A stretch of 54,586 bases of DNA from Flavobacteriaceae bacterium (GTDB taxonomy: Bacteria; Bacteroidota; Bacteroidia; Flavobacteriales_C; GCA-002722245), in assembly GCA_964230605.1 (NCBI GenBank), contig CAXRIN010000012.1, positions 1 through 54,586 on the forward strand, written 5' to 3'. A program made the translations under genes and the position numbers. Below the pieces are notes generated by a model. It had not been told where the DNA came from. It saw only the letters and a list, made by a program, of their open reading frames with translations, and did no database searches. Positions 3,671 to 53,714 of this stretch are shown one piece after another (position 1 is the stretch's first letter; every line of letters begins with the position of its first letter).

Positions 3671-5032
3671 TTAGTTTAACAAGAACTTTTTTATGTTCTC
3701 CACCTCTGCTCCAATATCACCCGCACCTATTGTTAAAACTACATCACAATCAGAAGCACTTATAAGGGAGGTAAGCTCTTTTTTTGAACAAAGCGTTTTT
3801 GAATTCATGTTAATTAAATCCAAAAGCATTTGAGAATCCACCCCCGGAATTGGCAATTCTCTTGCTGGATAGATATCTAAAAGCAGCAATTCATCCAACA
3901 ACTCTAAACTCCTCGCAAAGCCATCTGCGAAGTCTTGTGTACGGCTAAATAAATGTGGTTGAAATATTCCTAAAACTTTACGCTTTGGATACATTTTTCT
4001 TACAGATTTAACCAACTTTGTTATCTCTTCTGGATGATGTGCATAATCATCGATATAAACCAGTTTATCCGATTTGATTTGAACGTCAAATCTCCTATCA
4101 ACACCACTATAATTGGCAATTGCTTGTTTAAGTAATTCTGGATTAATGCCTTCTTCTATTCCTACTCCAAAAGCCACCAAAGCATTCTCCATATTATGAA
4201 TTCCTGGCAGACCAATTTTTACGTCTTTTAACTCTCCTCCAGACCATTTAAAATCAGCTAAAAACTCAGCGTTTTCAACTCTAAAATTAGCTGCGTGATA
4301 ATCTGCTGAGGCGTCCTCTATTGAGTAAGTTTTATAATCTTTCCCCAGAACATCTGTTAGAGAACTATGCACAATTCCTACACCGCCTTCAATAAGGTTT
4401 TCGGATAAAAATTGCTTGAAGGTTTTTTGCATTTCTTCCTTCGTTCCATATATATCTAAGTGATCTGGATCAATTGCAGAAACGGTTGCGATTGAAGGTT
4501 TTAATTGCAGAAAAGATCGATCGTATTCATCTGCTTCTATGACAGTGATTTCACTATTAGAATCATGGTAATAATTGCTTCCTAAATCTTTTGAAATCCC
4601 ACCCAAGAATGCCGTAAAAGGAACTTTACAGTATTTAAAAATGTGCGATATCATGCTAGAAATAGTCGTTTTCCCATGTGTTCCAGCTACACCAACACTC
4701 CTGTTTGACTCTGTGATTCTTCCCAAAACTTGAGAGCGCTTTAACAACTCAAAGCCTTCAGATTGGAAGTAGTTCCATTCGGAATGATTTTTTGGAATCG
4801 CAGGTGTGATAATCACCAAAGTGTTTTCTTTATCCTTGAAAGCATTATCAACCAATGATAAGTCATCTTCGTAATGAATCTCTACTCCTTCCTCTACTAA
4901 CTTTTTTGTAAGGGTAGTTTCAGTTTTATCATACCCCCCAACTCGTTTTCCTTGCGCCACAAAATATCGGGCTAAGGCGCTCATTCCAATCCCTCCAACT
5001 CCAATGAAGTATATATTTTCCTTTTGCGTCAC
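3671..5032 (-). CDS. murC: UDP-N-acetylmuramate--L-alanine ligase
   Basis: 453-aa ORF. YFIGVGGIGMSALA N-terminus, GTHGKTT P-loop and Mur ligase C-terminal domain. Overlaps the murG stop by 4 nt. Confidence 0.95.
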   Translation of the reverse strand: MTQKENIYFIGVGGIGMSALARYFVAQGKRVGGYDKTETTLTKKLVEEGVEIHYEDDLSLVDNAFKDKENTLVIITPAIPKNHSEWNYFQSEGFELLKRSQVLGRITESNRSVGVAGTHGKTTISSMISHIFKYCKVPFTAFLGGISKDLGSNYYHDSNSEITVIEADEYDRSFLQLKPSIATVSAIDPDHLDIYGTKEEMQKTFKQFLSENLIEGGVGIVHSSLTDVLGKDYKTYSIEDASADYHAANFRVENAEFLADFKWSGGELKDVKIGLPGIHNMENALVAFGVGIEEGINPELLKQAIANYSGVDRRFDVQIKSDKLVYIDDYAHHPEEITKLVKSVRKMYPKRKVLGIFQPHLFSRTQDFADGFARSLELLDELLLLDIYPARELPIPGVDSQMLLDLINMNSKTLCSKKELTSLISASDCDVVLTIGAGDIGAEVENIKKFLLN

Positions 5033-21068: not shown

Positions 21069-21578
21069 TTGATTACCTGGATAGTCATAGGAATAATTAT
21101 AGCTTACTACGTTGTTGGATTTATTCTTCCGGCATCTGTAACTGTGGCTGCTTCTTTACGAATGTCAGGTACGAGTGAATCAATTTTTACTACAATTAAA
21201 AACTTTAGAAACTGGGAAGGATGGGCGATTTGGAATTCTGATAATTCAATGAGTATCACGATTTCAGATCCTGCAAACGAAGTTGGTTCGCGCTATCGAT
21301 GGAAAAGCCAGATTAAAGAAATTAAAGATGGCTTAATTGTTCTAACGTCTGCTTCCGAAAACGCAGAACTAAATTATGATTGGTTTTACGGAAAAAGAAA
21401 ACGAGGCACCATCATGTTTAATATTGAACAACAAGGAAATCACAGCTTTGTAACCTGTTCAATTACTATCCATAACGAAAAGAAAATATTTGCGCGTTAT
21501 TTCACGCAGCTCATTAAAAATTCAATCTTAGATAACATCGAAGATGTATTGCTTAAAATAGACGAACGCAGCATGTGA
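21069..21578 (+). CDS. Membrane-anchored SRPBCC/START-like protein (tentative)
   Basis: 169-aa ORF (TTG start) with an N-terminal TM helix. The body resembles polyketide-cyclase/SRPBCC proteins in size and pattern. The family call is weak. Confidence 0.45.
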   Translation: MITWIVIGIIIAYYVVGFILPASVTVAASLRMSGTSESIFTTIKNFRNWEGWAIWNSDNSMSITISDPANEVGSRYRWKSQIKEIKDGLIVLTSASENAELNYDWFYGKRKRGTIMFNIEQQGNHSFVTCSITIHNEKKIFARYFTQLIKNSILDNIEDVLLKIDERSM

Positions 21579-21580
21579 TT

Positions 21581-21712
21581 TTTTCTCACACAGATCTCGC
21601 AGATTCCACAGATTTTCTTTTAGACAACAAAGTTGTCTTACATAATAGTTTTTAATATTTGGCTTTGCCGAATGAGAAAATCTGCGGAATCTGCGAGATC
21701 TGTATGAGAAAA
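21581..21712. repeat. 132-bp palindromic element: 38-bp inverted arms (2 mismatches) around a 56-bp core
   Basis: The left arm is ttttctcacacagatctcgcagattccacagattttct (21581-21618). The reverse complement of the right arm (21675-21712) is agaaaatctgcggaatctgcgagatctgtatgagaaaa. The core contains the small hairpin agacaac-aaa-gttgtct (21622-21638). Confidence 0.85.
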
Positions 21713-26733: not shown

Positions 26734-26790
26734 AATTTAAATTATGGTAGATAACACCCTATCAAAACAGGAATTTAAGTGATGACTTAT

Positions 26791-26817
26791 TATGGCCTAT
26801 TTTCATAGGCCACTACA
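26791..26817. repeat. REP-like hairpin repeat, copy A (tatggcctattttcataggccactaca)
   Basis: This 27-mer is identical at 30647-30673. Variant copies occur at 53606-53636 (reverse orientation) and 53674-53701. The stem is ggcctat/ataggcc with a 4-nt loop. It lies between the rbfA stop and the LolE-like start. Confidence 0.8.
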
Positions 26818-30576: not shown

Positions 30577-30718
30577 CTCCCTCAGAGCACTCCGAGTTCT
30601 CGGAGGGAAATGTAATGAATTAAGATAGCATAATAATATGAGTTGCTATGGCCTATTTTCATAGGCCACTACAGAAGAGTTCAATAATGTATTAAACCCT
30701 CTGAGTACTCTGAGGGAG
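30577..30718. repeat. Composite MITE-like element: CTCCCTCAGAG-type terminal inverted repeats enclosing REP-like hairpin copy B
   Basis: Left end ctccctcagagcactc (30577-). The right end, reverse-complemented, reads ctccctcagagtactc (-30718). The central 27-mer at 30647-30673 is identical to 26791-26817. Each end is itself hairpin-forming. Confidence 0.7.
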
Positions 30719-38530: not shown

Positions 38531-39568
38531 ATGCGCTACTTAAGCCTTATTCTTTCCGCAATGATTTTATTGTCATGCGGAGAATCAAATCAACCAAAAG
38601 AAGAATTTTCATATTTACCAGATGCCGTTGGTGGTTATAGTACTTTAAATATAATTGCCGATCAAACTCTATGGGATGCTGGATTAAAGGCATACGTTGA
38701 ACCTGTATTCTGTAAGGAAATTGAGGGGCTACTTAATCCTGAGCAAGAATTCGATATTACAACGATTAGATCAAAAGCTTTTAACAGACTTTTTGAAAGA
38801 CAACGTTTCTTGTTACTTTTTGCTACTTCGAAGAAAATTTTAAAAGAAGGTGTAAGTGTAAAAAATGACGTTTATGCCAATGGTCAAATTATCGTTCAGA
38901 TATCAGCCAAAACAGAAGAAAGAGCTATTGAAGTTTTTAAAACAAATCAAAACGATATTTTTCAAGCAATTGATAATTACAGAACCACCATCATTCAAAA
39001 GCTAGCTAAACAAAAAAACAACGCCAAATTAGAAACTCAATTAGCCAATAATCATGGTATTAAATTAACAATACCACAGAGTTACAAGGCTGGAATTGAT
39101 TCAACAAACTTCTTTTACGCATTTAAGCAAGGAGAAATGAAGTGTGAGAAGTTTGAACACAATAACTGTTACTATCAAACTGGAATTTTCACCTACTTTT
39201 TTAACTATACTTCTCAGGATGTATTCACCCCCGAAAAGTTCATTGCAATGCGTGACTCTGTGACTAAACTTTATATTGAAGGAACTACAACATCCGATTC
39301 TGTTAGGTCATATATGCAAGTGTTTAAAAAACTTCCTGTTTCAACAGAGAATGTAAACATCAATGGAAAATTCGGCTATGAAGTAAAAGGCTGGTGGGAC
39401 ATGAAAAACGGCGCAATGGGAGGCCCTTTCATAAGTGTTGCTTTTGTTGATGAATTAAGAGATCGAGTTATTGTGACTGATGCTTTTGTATTTGGTCCAA
39501 ACTTTAACAAAAGACGATTCATTAAAGAATTGGAAGCAATTTGCCTTTCGGCGAGTGCTATTGAATAA
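38531..39568 (+). CDS. Lipoprotein, probably DUF4837 family
   Basis: 345-aa ORF with a lipobox (LLSCG). Sits directly after the MltD-like gene. The DUF4837 assignment is from memory of the family's size and context only. Confidence 0.45.
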   Translation: MRYLSLILSAMILLSCGESNQPKEEFSYLPDAVGGYSTLNIIADQTLWDAGLKAYVEPVFCKEIEGLLNPEQEFDITTIRSKAFNRLFERQRFLLLFATSKKILKEGVSVKNDVYANGQIIVQISAKTEERAIEVFKTNQNDIFQAIDNYRTTIIQKLAKQKNNAKLETQLANNHGIKLTIPQSYKAGIDSTNFFYAFKQGEMKCEKFEHNNCYYQTGIFTYFFNYTSQDVFTPEKFIAMRDSVTKLYIEGTTTSDSVRSYMQVFKKLPVSTENVNINGKFGYEVKGWWDMKNGAMGGPFISVAFVDELRDRVIVTDAFVFGPNFNKRRFIKELEAICLSASAIE

Positions 39569-39614
39569 ATCCCCTCACCCTTCGGGAGCTCCCCTTGTCA
39601 AAGGGAGCGGTTGA
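39568..39614. repeat. Left 47-bp GC-rich structured repeat flanking the DUF559 gene
   Basis: aaatcccctcacccttcgggagctccccttgtcaaagggagcggttg. Its reverse-complement partner is at 40091-40140 and a diverged solo copy is at 50937-50985. Confidence 0.9.
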
Positions 39615-39618
39615 AACA

Positions 39619-39978
39619 TTATCCTTTGTTTTTGGTTATTTCAAGTTTTATGGCTTCCAAAACTAAATCTAAATGATTTTTAATTGTTTGATTCTCAAAC
39701 CTTAGAACTTTAAATCCCAATTTAGTTAATATCTCATCCCTAACCGTATCATTCACCCTTCCGATAGGAGTAAAATGGTTTTGACCATCTATTTCAATAA
39801 TGATTTTGTTTTTCAAGGCTGCAAAATCGACTATAAAATCACCAATACTTACTTGTCGCCTAAACCTGATGTTTAACTTATTATTCCTTATTTCTCGCCA
39901 GAGCAAATTTTCATAGTAAGTTGAATTATTTCTTAGATATTTTCTAGTTTCTTTTAGTGAATGCTTGTATGTTTTCAT
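39619..39978 (-). CDS. DUF559 (Vsr-like PD-(D/E)xK) endonuclease domain protein
   Basis: 119-aa ORF. E..LW..IR.....FRRQ..IG.FIVDF......IIEIDG..H pattern and a C-terminal KVLRFEN. Confidence 0.85.
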   Translation of the reverse strand: MKTYKHSLKETRKYLRNNSTYYENLLWREIRNNKLNIRFRRQVSIGDFIVDFAALKNKIIIEIDGQNHFTPIGRVNDTVRDEILTKLGFKVLRFENQTIKNHLDLVLEAIKLEITKNKG

Positions 39979-40090
39979 GTCTCAAACATAAAGACTCAAG
40001 AAATTTTAAGGAGAAAAAAAGTGAAATTTAAAAAGATTAAATCCAAAACGTTTTATAAATGGTTAATACTGAAAATATTTCACCAAATAT

Positions 40091-40140
40091 TCCAACCGCT
40101 CCCTTTGACAAGGGGAGCTCCCAAAGGGTGAGGGGATTTT
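40091..40140. repeat. Right 50-bp repeat flanking the DUF559 gene (inverted copy of 39568-39614)
   Basis: tccaaccgctccctttgacaaggggagctcccaaagggtgaggggatttt. Its reverse complement matches the left copy at about 46 of 48 positions. Confidence 0.9.
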
Positions 40141-41000
40141 CAAGCCAATTCCTCCTCCCAAAACGATTTGGTACTCAAAGGCTCCCTTCCAAGTACTTCT
40201 TTCAATTTGCTATTTTCATGAATATTATCCTCGCCTAGTAAGAGATATTGATCCTTATTCATAATTTGAGGAAACAAAGCAATCACTAATCTGAACGGTT
40301 TATCAATTAACCACTTCGGGATTCTGATAATTTTAATCTTCCCTTTACCGGCAATATTAATCCAATCTTCTAAAGAATAAATTTCTGGACCTGTGGCATA
40401 AATTTCTTGTCTGTTTAAATCTTGTTTAATGCATTCAATGGCAGCATGAGCAACATCTTCCCCCATTACAGGTTGGAACTTAGCAGATAAAAAATGAGCA
40501 GGACAAGGCAGGAACCCCAATTGCCACTTTGCCATATTTTGAAGCATTTTTATTTTGCTGATAATCATTGTTCTAGGGGTACAAACAAAACTTGGATGGA
40601 TAATATTCACGTTATCCTCTTTCATCAAAATTTCATCTGCAACTCCTTTTGTTGAAGCATACCTAGAAGGAGAATTCTTGTCGGCTCCTAATACCGAAAC
40701 ATGAACAATTTTCGGATTGCCTAACTGAGGTCTTTCAGTGATGATTTTCTTTACAACATCAATATGAATTTTTTCAAAAGTATTCTCCCCTTTTTCTTCG
40801 ATTATACCAACAGAATTGATAATAACATCCAACTTCCCCAAACTACTCCAGTCCTCCTGAAAAACATTAAATTGAAAACCATTCGCGCCTTTTCCGCTTC
40901 GGGAACAACTTAGAATTTCCGCATTGGGAAATGCCTTAGAAACCTCTTGGTTAATTACAGTTCCAATTTGTCCGGTACCTCCTAATATTGCTAATCTCAT
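40140..41000 (-). CDS. NAD(P)H-binding atypical SDR / NmrA-like protein
   Basis: 286-aa ORF. MRLAILGGTGQIG Rossmann motif. Last gene of the GbsR-headed operon. Confidence 0.65.
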   Translation of the reverse strand: MRLAILGGTGQIGTVINQEVSKAFPNAEILSCSRSGKGANGFQFNVFQEDWSSLGKLDVIINSVGIIEEKGENTFEKIHIDVVKKIITERPQLGNPKIVHVSVLGADKNSPSRYASTKGVADEILMKEDNVNIIHPSFVCTPRTMIISKIKMLQNMAKWQLGFLPCPAHFLSAKFQPVMGEDVAHAAIECIKQDLNRQEIYATGPEIYSLEDWINIAGKGKIKIIRIPKWLIDKPFRLVIALFPQIMNKDQYLLLGEDNIHENSKLKEVLGREPLSTKSFWEEELA

Positions 41001-49995: not shown

Positions 49996-50934
49996 ATGAA
50001 AAAGTCAATCATATTTTTATTAAAAGTCACTGCCTTTACAGTACTACTGGCAAGCACATTATTACTATTTAAACAAAATGGTTGGATAACCACTTTATTC
50101 CTTTCAACTGCCATTCAATTTACACTTGGATCACTAGCGTTAGCCGGAATAATGTTTTATTTAAAAAGATATAAATCTGTTGTTTATAGTTCAGTTGCTG
50201 CAGTTCTATTTTCGGTTCAATTCATAGGCTACTTTTTCGAGCCGGAAGAAACTATAGCAGAATTTGAATTTGCGCAACCAAGATTAAAAATTGCTCAATT
50301 CAATGTGCTTACTTCTAACAAATCAAAGAAGGAAACCATTCAACGTATCTTGAGTTCAGACGCAACTATTGTTTCTGTTCAGGAAACAGATATGGCGTGG
50401 GCAAAAGCTTTATCCGATGAATTAAAAAGAGATTATCCATTTTCGGTTTACTTTCCTACTGAAAGGTGTTGCTATGGAATTTCATTATTAAGCAAAGTTC
50501 CTCTGCAGAATTCAGATGTCACTTTTCATGGAGGCGTTCCCAATATTGAAGCGGACGTGATGTTCAATCATCAATTAACTCATGTCATTTCAAGCCATGC
50601 TCCATCACCGGTTTCAAGAGAAAACCTGATTGCCAGAAATCAACATTTAAAAGAGCTGAAAAACCACGTCGCTAAAATTGATAGCCCAACTATTATTATG
50701 GGAGATTTTAATACTGTTCCTTGGGACGAAAATTTAATCGCTTTACGCGAAGAAGCCAATCTAAAAGATAGTAGGAAATCTTACAATGCCACCTTCCCCT
50801 CCTATTTCGGATCAGCGGGAATACCTATCGATTACATTTTACATTCAAATGAAATAAAATGCACAAAATTTAGTTCTATTGCCATTCAAGGGTCAGACCA
50901 TCGTGGCATAATAGGCGAATATGTAATTAACTAA
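49996..50934 (+). CDS. Endonuclease/exonuclease/phosphatase (EEP) family protein with N-terminal TM helices
   Basis: 312-aa ORF with three N-terminal TM segments. EEP motifs: FNVL..N, VQE, GDFN, and a C-terminal SDHRG. Confidence 0.75.
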   Translation: MKKSIIFLLKVTAFTVLLASTLLLFKQNGWITTLFLSTAIQFTLGSLALAGIMFYLKRYKSVVYSSVAAVLFSVQFIGYFFEPEETIAEFEFAQPRLKIAQFNVLTSNKSKKETIQRILSSDATIVSVQETDMAWAKALSDELKRDYPFSVYFPTERCCYGISLLSKVPLQNSDVTFHGGVPNIEADVMFNHQLTHVISSHAPSPVSRENLIARNQHLKELKNHVAKIDSPTIIMGDFNTVPWDENLIALREEANLKDSRKSYNATFPSYFGSAGIPIDYILHSNEIKCTKFSSIAIQGSDHRGIIGEYVIN

Positions 50935-50936
50935 TA

Positions 50937-50985
50937 ATCTTCCCCTCAGCCTTCGGCAGCTCCCCTTAAAAAGCGGAGCAGTTGA
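50937..50985. repeat. Solo, diverged copy of the DUF559-flanking structured repeat
   Basis: atcttcccctcagccttcggcagctccccttaaaaagcggagcagttga aligns with 39568-39614. The first hairpin carries a compensatory change (ccc/ggg to gcc/ggc). Confidence 0.7.
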
Positions 50986-51051
50986 TACTAAAATCGAACT
51001 TTTTAAAAGGATCGACGGAGATTAAACTGTCTAAATCAAAAACCAATAATC

Positions 51052-53589
51052 ATGGAATCAGAAAATCAATCAACACAAAATCCACGCAAAGGAAACATTG
51101 CAATCACATGGGTTGGAAGGGTTTTAGTTATCCTTTCATTCCTAAACTATTATGCTATAAAAGGCTCTAAACTGAGCAGTAATCGATTTATGGATGACGA
51201 CGGATTTGTTTTCATCACCTTCGTTGTAGCCCTGGGATATTTTATCACCATTTTAATCAACTCAATTACCTACAATAAATTCAGGTTTTTAAGATTGGAC
51301 AAAGGACATTTCTCAATTTCAGTTGCACTACTTTGTATAAGTGCCTACACTTTGAATTTAGAATTTGATGTCTTCGAACAATTCAGTTTATGGTGTGAGC
51401 TTACTTTGTTTGCCATACTAATTCCACTTTTTACCAACGACTGGTTTAATAAGCTTCCCGGAATTGGTAAATGGATTTATAGTTTCGTCATGGGATTCGG
51501 GATGATTTTAGCATTGTACTTTACTATTTACCTTCTTCCTGCTTGGCCGCTTGGTGTATTAGCCATCTTGTTTTTAGGATTAGGAATGCATTTCTTTGCG
51601 CCTGCTATTTTACTGTTTACTTTAATTGTTCAATACAAAAAACTAAAACGTTCAAAAAGAGATTTAACCGGATTACTTTCTGGAATTTTATTCCCAGTTG
51701 TCGTGGTAATTTACTTATCAATAAATTGGGGAATTGCAGTGAACAAAATCCATAAAGCAGAACAAAATGTGCCAGCATTTCCGAGGGAATTTCCTGAATG
51801 GTATTACTTGAGTCAGCAATTATACAACGATTATTTTGTAGATCTTGTTCTACAAGGAAACCTAGCCTATAGTACGCCGAAAAACACAGATGTAACAGGA
51901 TTATTTAATGGAAGAGGTGGAACTTCGGCATACGGAGATAGATTCCGTCATGACCCATTAATTTTTACAACTGCACTTTTAGGAAGAGAAATTAATTTAG
52001 ATAAGGAAACTCGATTCAAATTACTGGAAGTTAATTATGCTTCACGTCATCAAACCGAAGAAAAACTGTGGGCGGGGAAAGATTTAGAGACAAAAAAGAT
52101 TGAAAATAATGTTCAAATATTTCCAGAATATCGAATGGCTTACAACGAAAAGACTATCACAATTCATAATGGCAGAAAACCAGGTTGGCGAGATGATCAA
52201 GAGGCTTTGTACAATTTTCACTTGCCTGAAGGTGCATCTGTAAGTTCTTTATCTCTATGGGTAAATGGCGTTGAAAGACAATCTCGATTAACCACAAAAA
52301 AGAAAGCTTCGCAAGCTTATAATCAAATTGTTGGTGTACAAAGACGAGATCCTGCCATTGCTCACTGGCAAGAAGGAAACCGTGTTACTGTTCGTGTTTT
52401 CCCTTGTCCACCTGAAGAATACAGGGTATTTAAAGTTGGTATTACAAGTCCGTTATTAAAAACAGGAGAAACACTCACGTATTCCGACACCTATTTAGAA
52501 GGGCCAATTTTAAAAAATGCCGAAGTTGTTTCAAATATAATTATTGATGGGAAGGAAATAGACTTAGATATGCCTTTTAGTTTTAATAAAGTAGGTGAAA
52601 AAAGTTACCAATATAATGGTTCATTCAACAACTATTTAACCATATCAATGAAAGACCCTGGACTAAGTAAAAATTCGTTTTGTTTCAATGGAAATTGTTA
52701 CCAATTAACTGAATCAAAATCAGAAAATAAATTCAAGCAATACGATAATATTTACTTAGATATAAATGATTCATGGAATGATGAAGAAATTGAGCAAGTA
52801 TTCTCAGTCTTTAAAAATCAAAAATTATGGGTTTACAATGCAGGGAAAATCAAAAGTGTAAAATCTGCAGGTGATGAAGTAATTAGTCAATTACATGATT
52901 TGAGTTTTAACCACATCCCGCTCTACGCATTAGATTCGACTAATTCGTTAATCATCACCAAAAATTCAGGTATCGCTCCAAATGTTGGCGATTTAAAATC
53001 CAGTGGATTCGCCATAAAGACAAAGAAATTTATGGCCAACACTTCATTTGTACCTGATGTTTTCTCATTAAACTATTTGAATGATTATTGGGGGACGCTT
53101 AACCAATTACAGTTAGTGAATGTTAGTTATGGGGATTTAAACGAATTGAAAGACATGGTGATCAATCATAGGTTTGAATATAAATCAGAAAATGATGATT
53201 TGGTTTACATTGACCAAGCTGAAATGATGATTGTGAAAACTGATAGTTCAGCTAAAAGCGAAGCTCCTGATCACTTATTAAGGCTTTTTGGTTACAACCA
53301 AATCCTCAAAAAAATTGGTAGAAAGTTTTATGACAGAGAGCAATGTGAAGACGATTTATTACACATTGCCAATGAAGCCTTTGTACTAAGTCCAATTTCC
53401 AGTATGGTTGTTCTGGAAACCGATAATGATTACGATCGATTTGGCATTAAGGAGAATAAAAACTCATTAAGTAACGCGAAAATGAAATCATCAGGGTCTG
53501 TTCCAGAACCGCATGAATTGGTGCTTATTTTCTTAGGAGGAGTAATATTAATGTATTTGTACAGACGAAAAGTGAATATGGCGGCTTGA
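51052..53589 (+). CDS. Polytopic membrane protein with VIT domain and C-terminal PEP-CTERM-type sorting signal (XrtN-system VIT protein-like)
   Basis: 845-aa ORF. About 7-8 TM helices in the first 230 aa. VIT-like region (FHLPEGASVSSLSLWVNGVERQSRL...RRDPAIAHWQEGNRVTVRVFPCPP). C-terminus SVPEPHELVLIFLGGVILMYLYRRK, i.e. VPEP + TM + basic cluster (VPEP codons at 53500-53511). Confidence 0.75.
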   Translation: MESENQSTQNPRKGNIAITWVGRVLVILSFLNYYAIKGSKLSSNRFMDDDGFVFITFVVALGYFITILINSITYNKFRFLRLDKGHFSISVALLCISAYTLNLEFDVFEQFSLWCELTLFAILIPLFTNDWFNKLPGIGKWIYSFVMGFGMILALYFTIYLLPAWPLGVLAILFLGLGMHFFAPAILLFTLIVQYKKLKRSKRDLTGLLSGILFPVVVVIYLSINWGIAVNKIHKAEQNVPAFPREFPEWYYLSQQLYNDYFVDLVLQGNLAYSTPKNTDVTGLFNGRGGTSAYGDRFRHDPLIFTTALLGREINLDKETRFKLLEVNYASRHQTEEKLWAGKDLETKKIENNVQIFPEYRMAYNEKTITIHNGRKPGWRDDQEALYNFHLPEGASVSSLSLWVNGVERQSRLTTKKKASQAYNQIVGVQRRDPAIAHWQEGNRVTVRVFPCPPEEYRVFKVGITSPLLKTGETLTYSDTYLEGPILKNAEVVSNIIIDGKEIDLDMPFSFNKVGEKSYQYNGSFNNYLTISMKDPGLSKNSFCFNGNCYQLTESKSENKFKQYDNIYLDINDSWNDEEIEQVFSVFKNQKLWVYNAGKIKSVKSAGDEVISQLHDLSFNHIPLYALDSTNSLIITKNSGIAPNVGDLKSSGFAIKTKKFMANTSFVPDVFSLNYLNDYWGTLNQLQLVNVSYGDLNELKDMVINHRFEYKSENDDLVYIDQAEMMIVKTDSSAKSEAPDHLLRLFGYNQILKKIGRKFYDREQCEDDLLHIANEAFVLSPISSMVVLETDNDYDRFGIKENKNSLSNAKMKSSGSVPEPHELVLIFLGGVILMYLYRRKVNMAA

Positions 53590-53605
53590 TTTAATTTAAA
53601 GCGTC

Positions 53606-53701
53606 TGTAGTGGCCGATGAAAATCGGCCATAGCAAGGCATTAATTAAGTTAGATTTTGAAGTACAAAACTGGTTATGGCCGATTTTCATCGGCAACTAC
53701 A
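53606..53701. repeat. Inverted pair of REP-like hairpin repeats (copies C and D)
   Basis: Copy C is tgtagtggccgatgaaaatcggccatagca (53606-53636, reverse orientation). Copy D is ttatggccgattttcatcggcaactaca (53674-53701). They are separated by 37 nt. The stems carry a compensatory T/A to G/C change relative to copies A and B. Confidence 0.8.
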
Positions 53702-53714
53702 GAATTTAAATTCC

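Follow-up and report, generated by a model that had tools for sequence, protein, structure and literature searches.

A 573-bp unit in a contig of a Flavobacteriaceae bacterium (CAXRIN010000012.1, positions 1 to 54,586; this whole stretch of 54,586 nucleotides (nt) is called the window below) consists of a gene of the DUF559 nuclease family and two inverted copies of a structured repeat. We interpret this unit as a discrete, exchangeable or mobile cassette, in which a DUF559 gene resembling those of homing endonucleases is framed by two inverted repeats of the intrastrand triplex motif (TM) type, and put the probability of this interpretation at roughly 60%. DUF559 cassettes bounded by TM repeats would form a class of mobile elements that is widespread and crosses phyla, and of which the window cassette is one member, with gene-less solo repeats and repeat doublets of the same family dispersed through genomes. 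Catalogues of TM repeats, also described as BoxC or PIT elements, go back to the 1990s and cover hundreds of genomes, and early descriptions were reportedly given by Bergler in 1992 and by Hoyne and Maher in 2000. To our knowledge, neither a function nor a mobilising factor is known for them, and DUF559 is itself a very large nuclease family of 'unknown function'. The cassette matters because it gives the BoxC/PIT repeats and DUF559 a testable connection.

The two arms of the cassette, at 39567–39620 on the + strand and, as the reverse complement, at 40086–40139 on the − strand, form an inverted repeat of 54 nt each, with 94% complementarity and a spacing of 465 nt, the longest inverted repeat in the window. 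The 43-nt core of the arm is found at only two places in the window at three or fewer mismatches, with 0.00 expected (100 shuffles). Enclosed by the arms are a single open reading frame (ORF), the DUF559 gene of 119 amino acids (aa) at 39619–39978 on the − strand, and the AT-rich 107 nt 5′ of it (39979–40085, − strand). Two nucleotides of the DUF559 stop codon fall within the inner end of the left arm. At their outer ends the arms touch the stop codons of both convergent flanking genes, which are a 345-aa DUF4837 gene on the left (38531–39568, + strand; Pfam DUF4837, E = 8e-68; TAA stop at 39566–39568) and a 286-aa gene without a Pfam match on the right (40140–41000, − strand; stop at 40140–40142). 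A solo copy of the repeat, lacking both a partner arm and a gene, is located at 50941–50988 (+ strand) between the ORFs at 49996–50934 and 51052–53589; it is 81% identical to the left arm, and its first hairpin has changed from CCC/GGG to GCC/GGC, a compensatory change.

A preliminary description of this DNA had proposed inverted structured repeats around a nuclease gene with solo copies elsewhere, an interior holding only the DUF559 ORF and its upstream region, outer ends abutting two convergent stop codons, and a third, unpaired copy with a compensatory change in its first hairpin. An inverted-repeat and copy search, the ORF list with Pfam, and direct reading of the sequence agree with all four points; the repeats had also been placed correctly, with arms that reach a few bases beyond the limits then given. 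The 107-nt upstream region presumably carries the promoter of the DUF559 gene and travels with the gene in the inverted cassette of a relative (L001). A promoter scan of this region returned a weak sigma-70-like match, no better than in shuffles, with a tool that lacks Bacteroidota-type promoters. No recombinase or transposase genes were detected within approximately 9 kb of the cassette.

The repeat is a variant of the known BoxC/PIT/TM family rather than the founder of a new one. The architecture of TMECO, BoxC and PIT elements combines a pyrimidine/purine hairpin with a mirror-repeat third block (Holder et al. 2015, PMC4666352). On the G-rich strand, all three window copies are composed of CTCCCTTT, a loop, AAGGGGAG, a 12-nt linker and either GAGGGGAT or GAGGGGAA. 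In each of them CTCCCTTT and AAGGGGAG form the pyrimidine/purine hairpin with one G·T mismatch (the main hairpin is mismatch-free in L001), and GAGGGGAT or GAGGGGAA mirrors AAGGGGAG over 8 nt. The left arm, with its C-rich third block outermost, comprises the third block ATCCCCTC (39569–39576), a linker with a CCC-TTC-GGG mini-hairpin and a conserved A·A mismatch (39577–39588), and the duplex strands CTCCCCTT (39589–39596) and AAAGGGAG (39600–39607) on either side of a GTC loop. The right arm, read on the + strand, comprises the duplex strands CTCCCTTT (40099–40106) and AAGGGGAG (40110–40117) with a GAC loop, a CCC-AAA-GGG linker (40118–40129) and the mirror block GAGGGGAT (40130–40137). These elements were assigned with a triplex-motif detector for 8-nt triples (pyrimidine block, purine block and mirror third block), relaxed to tolerate the one G·T mismatch seen in the window arms; on the block-shuffled window it returned 0–3 matches of any kind. 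The GAGCTC that the preliminary description took for the centre of the repeat is simply the point where the linker hairpin meets the duplex block of the triplex.

The window copies depart from the class in the length of the second linker. Loops measure 1–6 nt in the ITxF definition and 0–10 nt in that of Hoyne et al. (PMC4666352), and 3 nt in E. coli, whereas the linker of the window copies has 12 nt, so that the published finder (1–6-nt loops) would miss them. We file the repeat as a TM variant because the linker folds as a mini-hairpin and could act as a compact loop. The covariation of this mini-hairpin and its A·A mismatch are further differences. The features in common are a G/C-rich pyrimidine/purine hairpin with a mirror third block, dispersed intergenic copies, frequent inverted doublets of two subtypes, local rearrangement and a distribution over many phyla. 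TM motifs have been described in more than 260 genomes, with unexplained function, inverted doublets of type A and type B, and local instability (Holder et al. 2015, PMC4666352); triplex formation by TMECO has been assayed physically, and TM loci are rearrangement-prone in E. coli (PMC4666352). BoxC copy numbers are also given in a second study (PMC2267715).

The family was scanned in one genome per species with a pattern that fixes the unpaired blocks only (CCCCTCA, 8–14 free bases, AGCTCCCC, 5–11 free bases, GGAGC) and leaves the hairpin stretch unconstrained. At least 120 loci matched. The matches listed come from Caulobacter, Phenylobacterium, Dehalococcoidia, gut Clostridia, Bacteroidales, Calditrichia and others, and the exact window variant is multi-copy in genomes of Caulobacter, Dehalococcoidia, Clostridia and Bacteroidales. 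Family copies are mostly arranged as inverted doublets, spaced 10–70 nt apart, with two related subtypes in each doublet. Among the matches listed, the linker hairpin (the first hairpin) has at least three closing pairs in 105 of 113 unique members without any filtering. A covariation analysis of 64 members, pre-filtered for at least three pairs and thus to be read beside that unfiltered figure, found 99% of cells paired and 86 double-sided changes versus 25.7 ± 5.6 in shuffles; controls with slid partner columns were 20–44% paired. The earlier proposal of selection on the hairpin structure is upheld by this covariation, which constitutes the support for the structure because the folding-energy z-scores of single arms are unremarkable and not distinguishable from shuffles. 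MAFFT misaligned the 3′ half of the motif, and pattern and structure scripts were used in place of a covariance model. Rfam returned no family at gathering score in the window, and nothing at the arms even at E values up to 10.

The A·A mismatch flanking the base of the linker hairpin is kept in all family members (window positions 39577/39587), and the main hairpins of both window arms carry the same G·T mismatch (39589–39607 and 40099–40117). Since Vsr-type nucleases recognise mismatches, the conserved mismatches may represent a recognition feature. Two further readings of the arms were considered and dropped: a transcription terminator, with no T tract 3′ of the arms and no terminator-like match, and an attC/integron site, which would need R′ and R″ core sites that the arms lack, at positions where the arms vary across the family.

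The link between gene and repeat extends well beyond the window. It was measured from the gene side in 80 unrelated metagenomic DUF559 loci, picked solely by protein similarity (37–48% identity to the query). A significant bracketing inverted repeat is present around 34 of 68 testable DUF559 genes and around 7 of 127 neighbouring ORFs (50% vs 5.5%; odds ratio 17, p of about 1e-12), and the flanking of DUF559 genes by inverted repeats beyond chance, which the preliminary description had set as a test, therefore holds. A G-rich TM lies within 200 nt of the DUF559 gene in 67 of the 80 loci, and on both sides in 45. TM density amounts to 6.55 per kb within this distance and 0.25 per kb elsewhere in the same loci (approximately 26-fold), with 0 in shuffles. 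Of the 45 loci with a TM on both sides, 38 have inverted arms, with third blocks facing inward in 27 and outward in 11; those of the window cassette face outward. The exact sequence variant of the window is found near DUF559 in only four of these loci, so what accompanies the gene is the architecture of the motif, with sequences that vary by lineage. A repeat pair in L132, 443 nt apart, was examined as a possible cassette and rejected, as no convincing ORF lies inside.

In E. coli K-12 the DUF559 gene is ycjD. A distance of approximately 170 nt separates the 3′ end of ycjD from TMECO#9 (NC_000913, 1351204–1351239; L213:4196–4245), and a degenerate TM hairpin lies beside the ycjD stop codon (L213:4391–4425). 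The 5′ side bears an unrelated 17-nt palindrome, and with TM elements on the 3′ side only, ycjD is an adjacent case and not a bracketed one. E. coli genomes carry the TMECO#9-type repeat at 17 places in the median.

At the junction of the DUF4837 and 286-aa genes, both filled and empty alleles are found among relatives of the window. The junction is filled in the window and in L012, L001, L004 and L008, the DUF559 orthologues of which are 99%, 83%, 61–65% and 53–56% identical to the window protein, respectively. It is empty and free of any repeat in four relatives (L214/215, L216/217, L218/219 and L220/221), where 27, 3, 8 and 10 nt separate the convergent stop codons. The empty sites were located through homologues of the 286-aa gene, some of which are named 'NADH dehydrogenase', 'YbjT (DUF2867 family)' or 'SDR family oxidoreductase' by their source. 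Filled and empty states interleave when the lineages are ranked by flank identity. The suggestion, made from the window alone, that the 573-bp unit is a discrete insertion is upheld by these four empty orthologous junctions. In L008 no pair of repeats surrounds the DUF559 gene: an inverted doublet without a gene inside (4363–4503, with a 63-nt spacer) lies directly downstream, and the upstream side retains only a possible remnant, TTTTCCCC.

The interior of the L001 cassette is inverted, with arms and flanks collinear with the window, and overall the cassettes of L001 and L008 are oriented opposite to those of the window, L004 and L012. Between the window and L001 the synonymous divergence (dS) of DUF559 is 1.30, versus 0.08–0.25 for four flanking genes (5–15 times higher), and the ratio of nonsynonymous to synonymous divergence (dN/dS) of DUF559 is 0.086. 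The window DUF559 gene appears from its sequence to be functional and is under purifying selection. This selection, combined with a history much deeper than that of the flanks, suggests that the cassette was replaced or exchanged between the limits set by the arms, and not recently flipped.

The two orientations could also be those of a programmed inversion switch, with the arms as sites for a site-specific invertase and the segment flipping as a phase-variation device, which would suit assemblies that break at the arms; contigs L002, L003, L010, L011 and L012 all end inside or just after a repeat arm. However, an inverted allele at a dS of 1.3 is not a recent flip, orientations differ only between diverged lineages, no recombinase gene is present within approximately 9 kb, and the gene brings its own upstream region, such that flipping alters no obvious promoter–gene relation. 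The contig breaks are not by themselves evidence of inversion heterogeneity, because they are expected at any inverted repeat exceeding the k-mer of the assembler. Such a switch is thus highly improbable.

The same type of cassette is found at unrelated sites, with the arms as exact limits of the shared DNA. L168 and L193 have only a 532-nt cassette in common (82% identity), and the homology ends at the repeat ends; the interrupted host genes are CinA in L168 and a MiaB-like radical-SAM gene in L193. The cassette is in frame and stop-free inside a larger gene in at least 11 of the 80 loci, a count based on ORF continuity that gives no out-of-frame frequency. Besides CinA and the MiaB-like gene, the hosts comprise LeuRS (L136 and L137, with L137:1487–4909, and L154:1260–4383, which holds two copies), MetH (L157 and L165), PriA (L159), RecG (L191), an Eco57I-type methylase (L172) and HsdR (L175). 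The LeuRS gene of L154 contains a 477-nt (159-aa) insert bounded by ACCTCACCCC and GGGGTGAGGT; L137 has no interruption at this position. In their position the in-frame cassettes are intein-like, without a Hint domain.

Solo triplex-type repeats are also translated in frame, in a glgB-like ORF of L190 (2240–4912) and an ispF-like ORF of L169 (2456–3454), with peptides such as LSPLLSGEGQGGEV; in this they resemble the Rickettsia palindromic elements. The ORF at 1136–3049 of L164 encodes the peptide PLEGEARKGLS in tandem ahead of a DUF559 domain, a repeat-unit array read in frame. The same locus contains two small genes, identified by eye as a GxxExxY-type nuclease gene (L164:3348–3752) and a four-helix-bundle ('23S rRNA IVS') gene (L164:383–733), each bracketed by its own, different inverted repeat. 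Inverted-repeat bracketing of small genes may be broader than DUF559.

The DUF559 protein matches positions 4–108 of the 109-position Pfam profile (E = 7.6e-31) and PDB entry 3HRL by sequence (E = 9.5e-13). Residues D51, E62, D64 and G65 are the same in all 31 homologues compared, H68 is almost invariant, and the conserved acidic and histidine residues are intact in the window protein. An AlphaFold2 model (pLDDT 88.6, pTM 0.82) is most similar in Foldseek to the DUF559 structure 3HRL (target-normalised TM-score of 0.92), followed by the catalytic domain of the homing endonuclease I-Bth0305I (PDB entry 3R3P, E = 3.4e-4, TM-scores of 0.68 and 0.81); E. coli Vsr (PDB entry 1CW0) is a weaker match that ranks after 3R3P (E = 0.059). 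The protein is accordingly predicted by the model to adopt a Vsr-like PD-(D/E)xK nuclease fold, nearer to I-Bth0305I than to Vsr. The DUF559 protein VsrA of Caulobacter causes SOS-inducing DNA damage in vivo when a cytosine methyltransferase is absent (PMC12907096), which indicates that DUF559 members can be active on chromosomal DNA.

The VsrA work itself favours a role in mismatch repair (PMC12907096) and, with its functional tie to a cytosine methyltransferase, lends some weight to a passive coincidence, in which DUF559 is an ordinary Vsr-like mismatch-repair nuclease and recombinogenic or transcript-end TM repeats accumulate around horizontally acquired small genes. The proneness of TM loci to rearrangement in E. 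coli (PMC4666352) and the other inverted repeats that bracket the two small genes of L164 fit this explanation as well. We nevertheless consider it quite improbable, as the enrichment is specific to DUF559 within the same loci, in density as well as in bracketing, the arms set the exact limits of the DNA common to cassettes at unrelated sites, no terminator-like T tract follows the arms, and in-frame cassettes in essential genes are hard to account for by accumulation.

The preliminary description had likened the layout to a REPtron, in which a transposase gene of the REP-associated tyrosine transposase (RAYT) type is flanked by repetitive extragenic palindromic (REP) sequences. The analogy is largely borne out: a nuclease-type gene is flanked by inverted copies of a structured repeat that is otherwise dispersed as singlets and inverted doublets, with one or few genes and many repeats, as in REPtrons and REPIN–RAYT systems. 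It fails on the gene, which is not a RAYT; the only ORF between the arms encodes a PD-(D/E)xK nuclease of the DUF559 family, and no Y1 HUH transposase is present. The repeats also differ, with triplex-type mirror symmetry and no GTAG head, and gene and arms move together as a unit that is polymorphic for presence and absence and found at non-homologous sites.

REPINs are pairs of inverted REP sequences spread by a RAYT gene. The REPIN–RAYT comparison suggests a domestication model, in which DUF559 is a single-copy, vertically inherited gene that spreads or maintains the TM repeats, the repeats being the mobile part and the gene only situated among them, as RAYT genes are among REPINs. TM copies vastly outnumber DUF559 genes (ycjD at the examined E. 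coli locus versus 23 TMECOs in the genome), DUF559 is under purifying selection, even lineages with flanking proteins only 65% identical have a cassette at the same junction, and doublets of two arm types resemble the Y/Z REP pairs of bacterial interspersed mosaic elements (BIMEs). Nonetheless, the empty sites in close relatives, the elevated dS of the cassette relative to its flanks, the same cassette in unrelated host genes with homology stopping exactly at the arms, and the two cassettes within the one LeuRS gene of L154 indicate that the gene itself moves. Domestication is therefore unlikely, and a gene moving with its arms appears to fit the comparative sequence data better than a strict REPtron/RAYT model of a vertically inherited, domesticated gene that spreads repeats.

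The DUF559 cassette also has close counterparts among the homing endonuclease genes, free-standing or borne by introns or inteins, in particular the Vsr-like EDxHD family with I-Bth0305I (3R3P), to which the modelled catalytic domain appears similar. Like them, it shows filled and empty alleles of one site, a history decoupled from its flanks, and recurrent insertion in conserved housekeeping genes (LeuRS, helicases and MetH). It differs in having no intron or intein (Hint) scaffold; instead, it is bounded by inverted triplex-type repeats and is apparently read through in frame. With insertion sequences and miniature inverted-repeat transposable elements (MITEs) the cassette shares terminal inverted repeats around a single enzyme gene and gene-less doublets with 10–70-nt spacers. 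In contrast to insertion sequences, a transposase of the DDE, HUH or serine/tyrosine type is encoded neither by its ORF nor by the approximately 9 kb around it, and no clear target-site duplication is seen; moreover, a 119-aa nuclease alone is unlikely to perform strand transfer.

In the mechanism that we propose, structured repeat DNA is the probable substrate of the nuclease, whether in its own arms or in TM doublets that lack a gene. A nick or break made there would be repaired by recombination, with the arms of approximately 50 bp as homology. Through such repair the cassette could be copied into TM sites, inverted, or exchanged between lineages, and single or paired repeats without a gene would derive from cassettes or serve as their targets. 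The cutting of TM DNA by DUF559 as the driver of mobility, and the choice between homing and a transposition-like movement, are what we infer from the comparisons above.

Several observations weigh against a mobile cassette. The ends show no clear target-site duplication, only an ambiguous AT at both. The cassette has been kept at one junction across lineages with flanking proteins 65–70% identical, a persistence compatible as well with prolonged vertical inheritance and occasional loss. The 54-kb window contains three copies of the repeat only, the scope of this count being the window. The 80 gene-side loci represent one DUF559 subfamily (37–48% identical to the query) rather than DUF559 as a whole. 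From the repeat side, a DUF559 gene is adjacent in 3 of the 120 repeat-chosen loci listed, which implies that TM repeats are for the most part propagated or retained with no DUF559 gene in cis.

If the DUF559–TM link is true, it provides a candidate partner for each of two long-standing unknowns, suggests how the repeats spread and why their loci are unstable, and adds a new nuclease type to the repeat-associated and homing enzymes. The in-frame cassettes pose the question of how essential proteins tolerate or shed an intein-less nuclease insertion of 150–170 aa. A broader proposal, which we advance tentatively, is that TM-bounded DUF559 cassettes are unrecognised, cross-phylum, nuclease-driven mobile elements with triplex-capable terminal repeats. 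The BoxC/PIT repeats of E. coli, cyanobacteria, Caulobacter, gut Clostridia and Bacteroidota might then be their gene-less derivatives or landing sites, and cassettes inserted in frame in essential genes (LeuRS, MetH, PriA, RecG and MiaB) might persist as intein-less domain insertions or be removed by an unrecognised process.

The preliminary description knew of no formal account of the layout. The repeat class had already been described (PMC4666352), and the DUF559 link seems to be undescribed. In the searchable part of the open-access literature, no link between DUF559 and a repeat or triplex was found, DUF559 is absent from the titles and abstracts accessible there, and DUF559 together with 'repetitive extragenic palindromic' gave no match. 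Holder et al. 2015 (PMC4666352), the one relevant paper found there on intrastrand triplexes, BoxC and endonucleases, mention neither DUF559, ycjD nor an endonuclease and report no associated gene. DUF559 is listed, without comment, as enriched among predicted inversion targets (PMC9881135). Within the searchable open-access literature, the DUF559–TM association, the cassette behaviour and the hairpin-linker variant thus appear to be undescribed.

The window contains two further kinds of repeat. An inverted doublet of 38-nt copies, TTTTCTCACACAGATCTCGCAGATTCCACAGATTTTCT, is located at 21581–21618 and 21675–21712 (95% complementary, 56-nt spacer); it starts just past the stop codon of the ORF at 21069–21578 and has a MITE-like appearance. 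A second hairpin family, with the core TGTAGTGGCC-GATGAAAATC-GGCCATAGC, is present in four copies (26782–26817, 30638–30673, 53603–53651 and 53666–53701), two of which form an inverted pair at 53604–53703.

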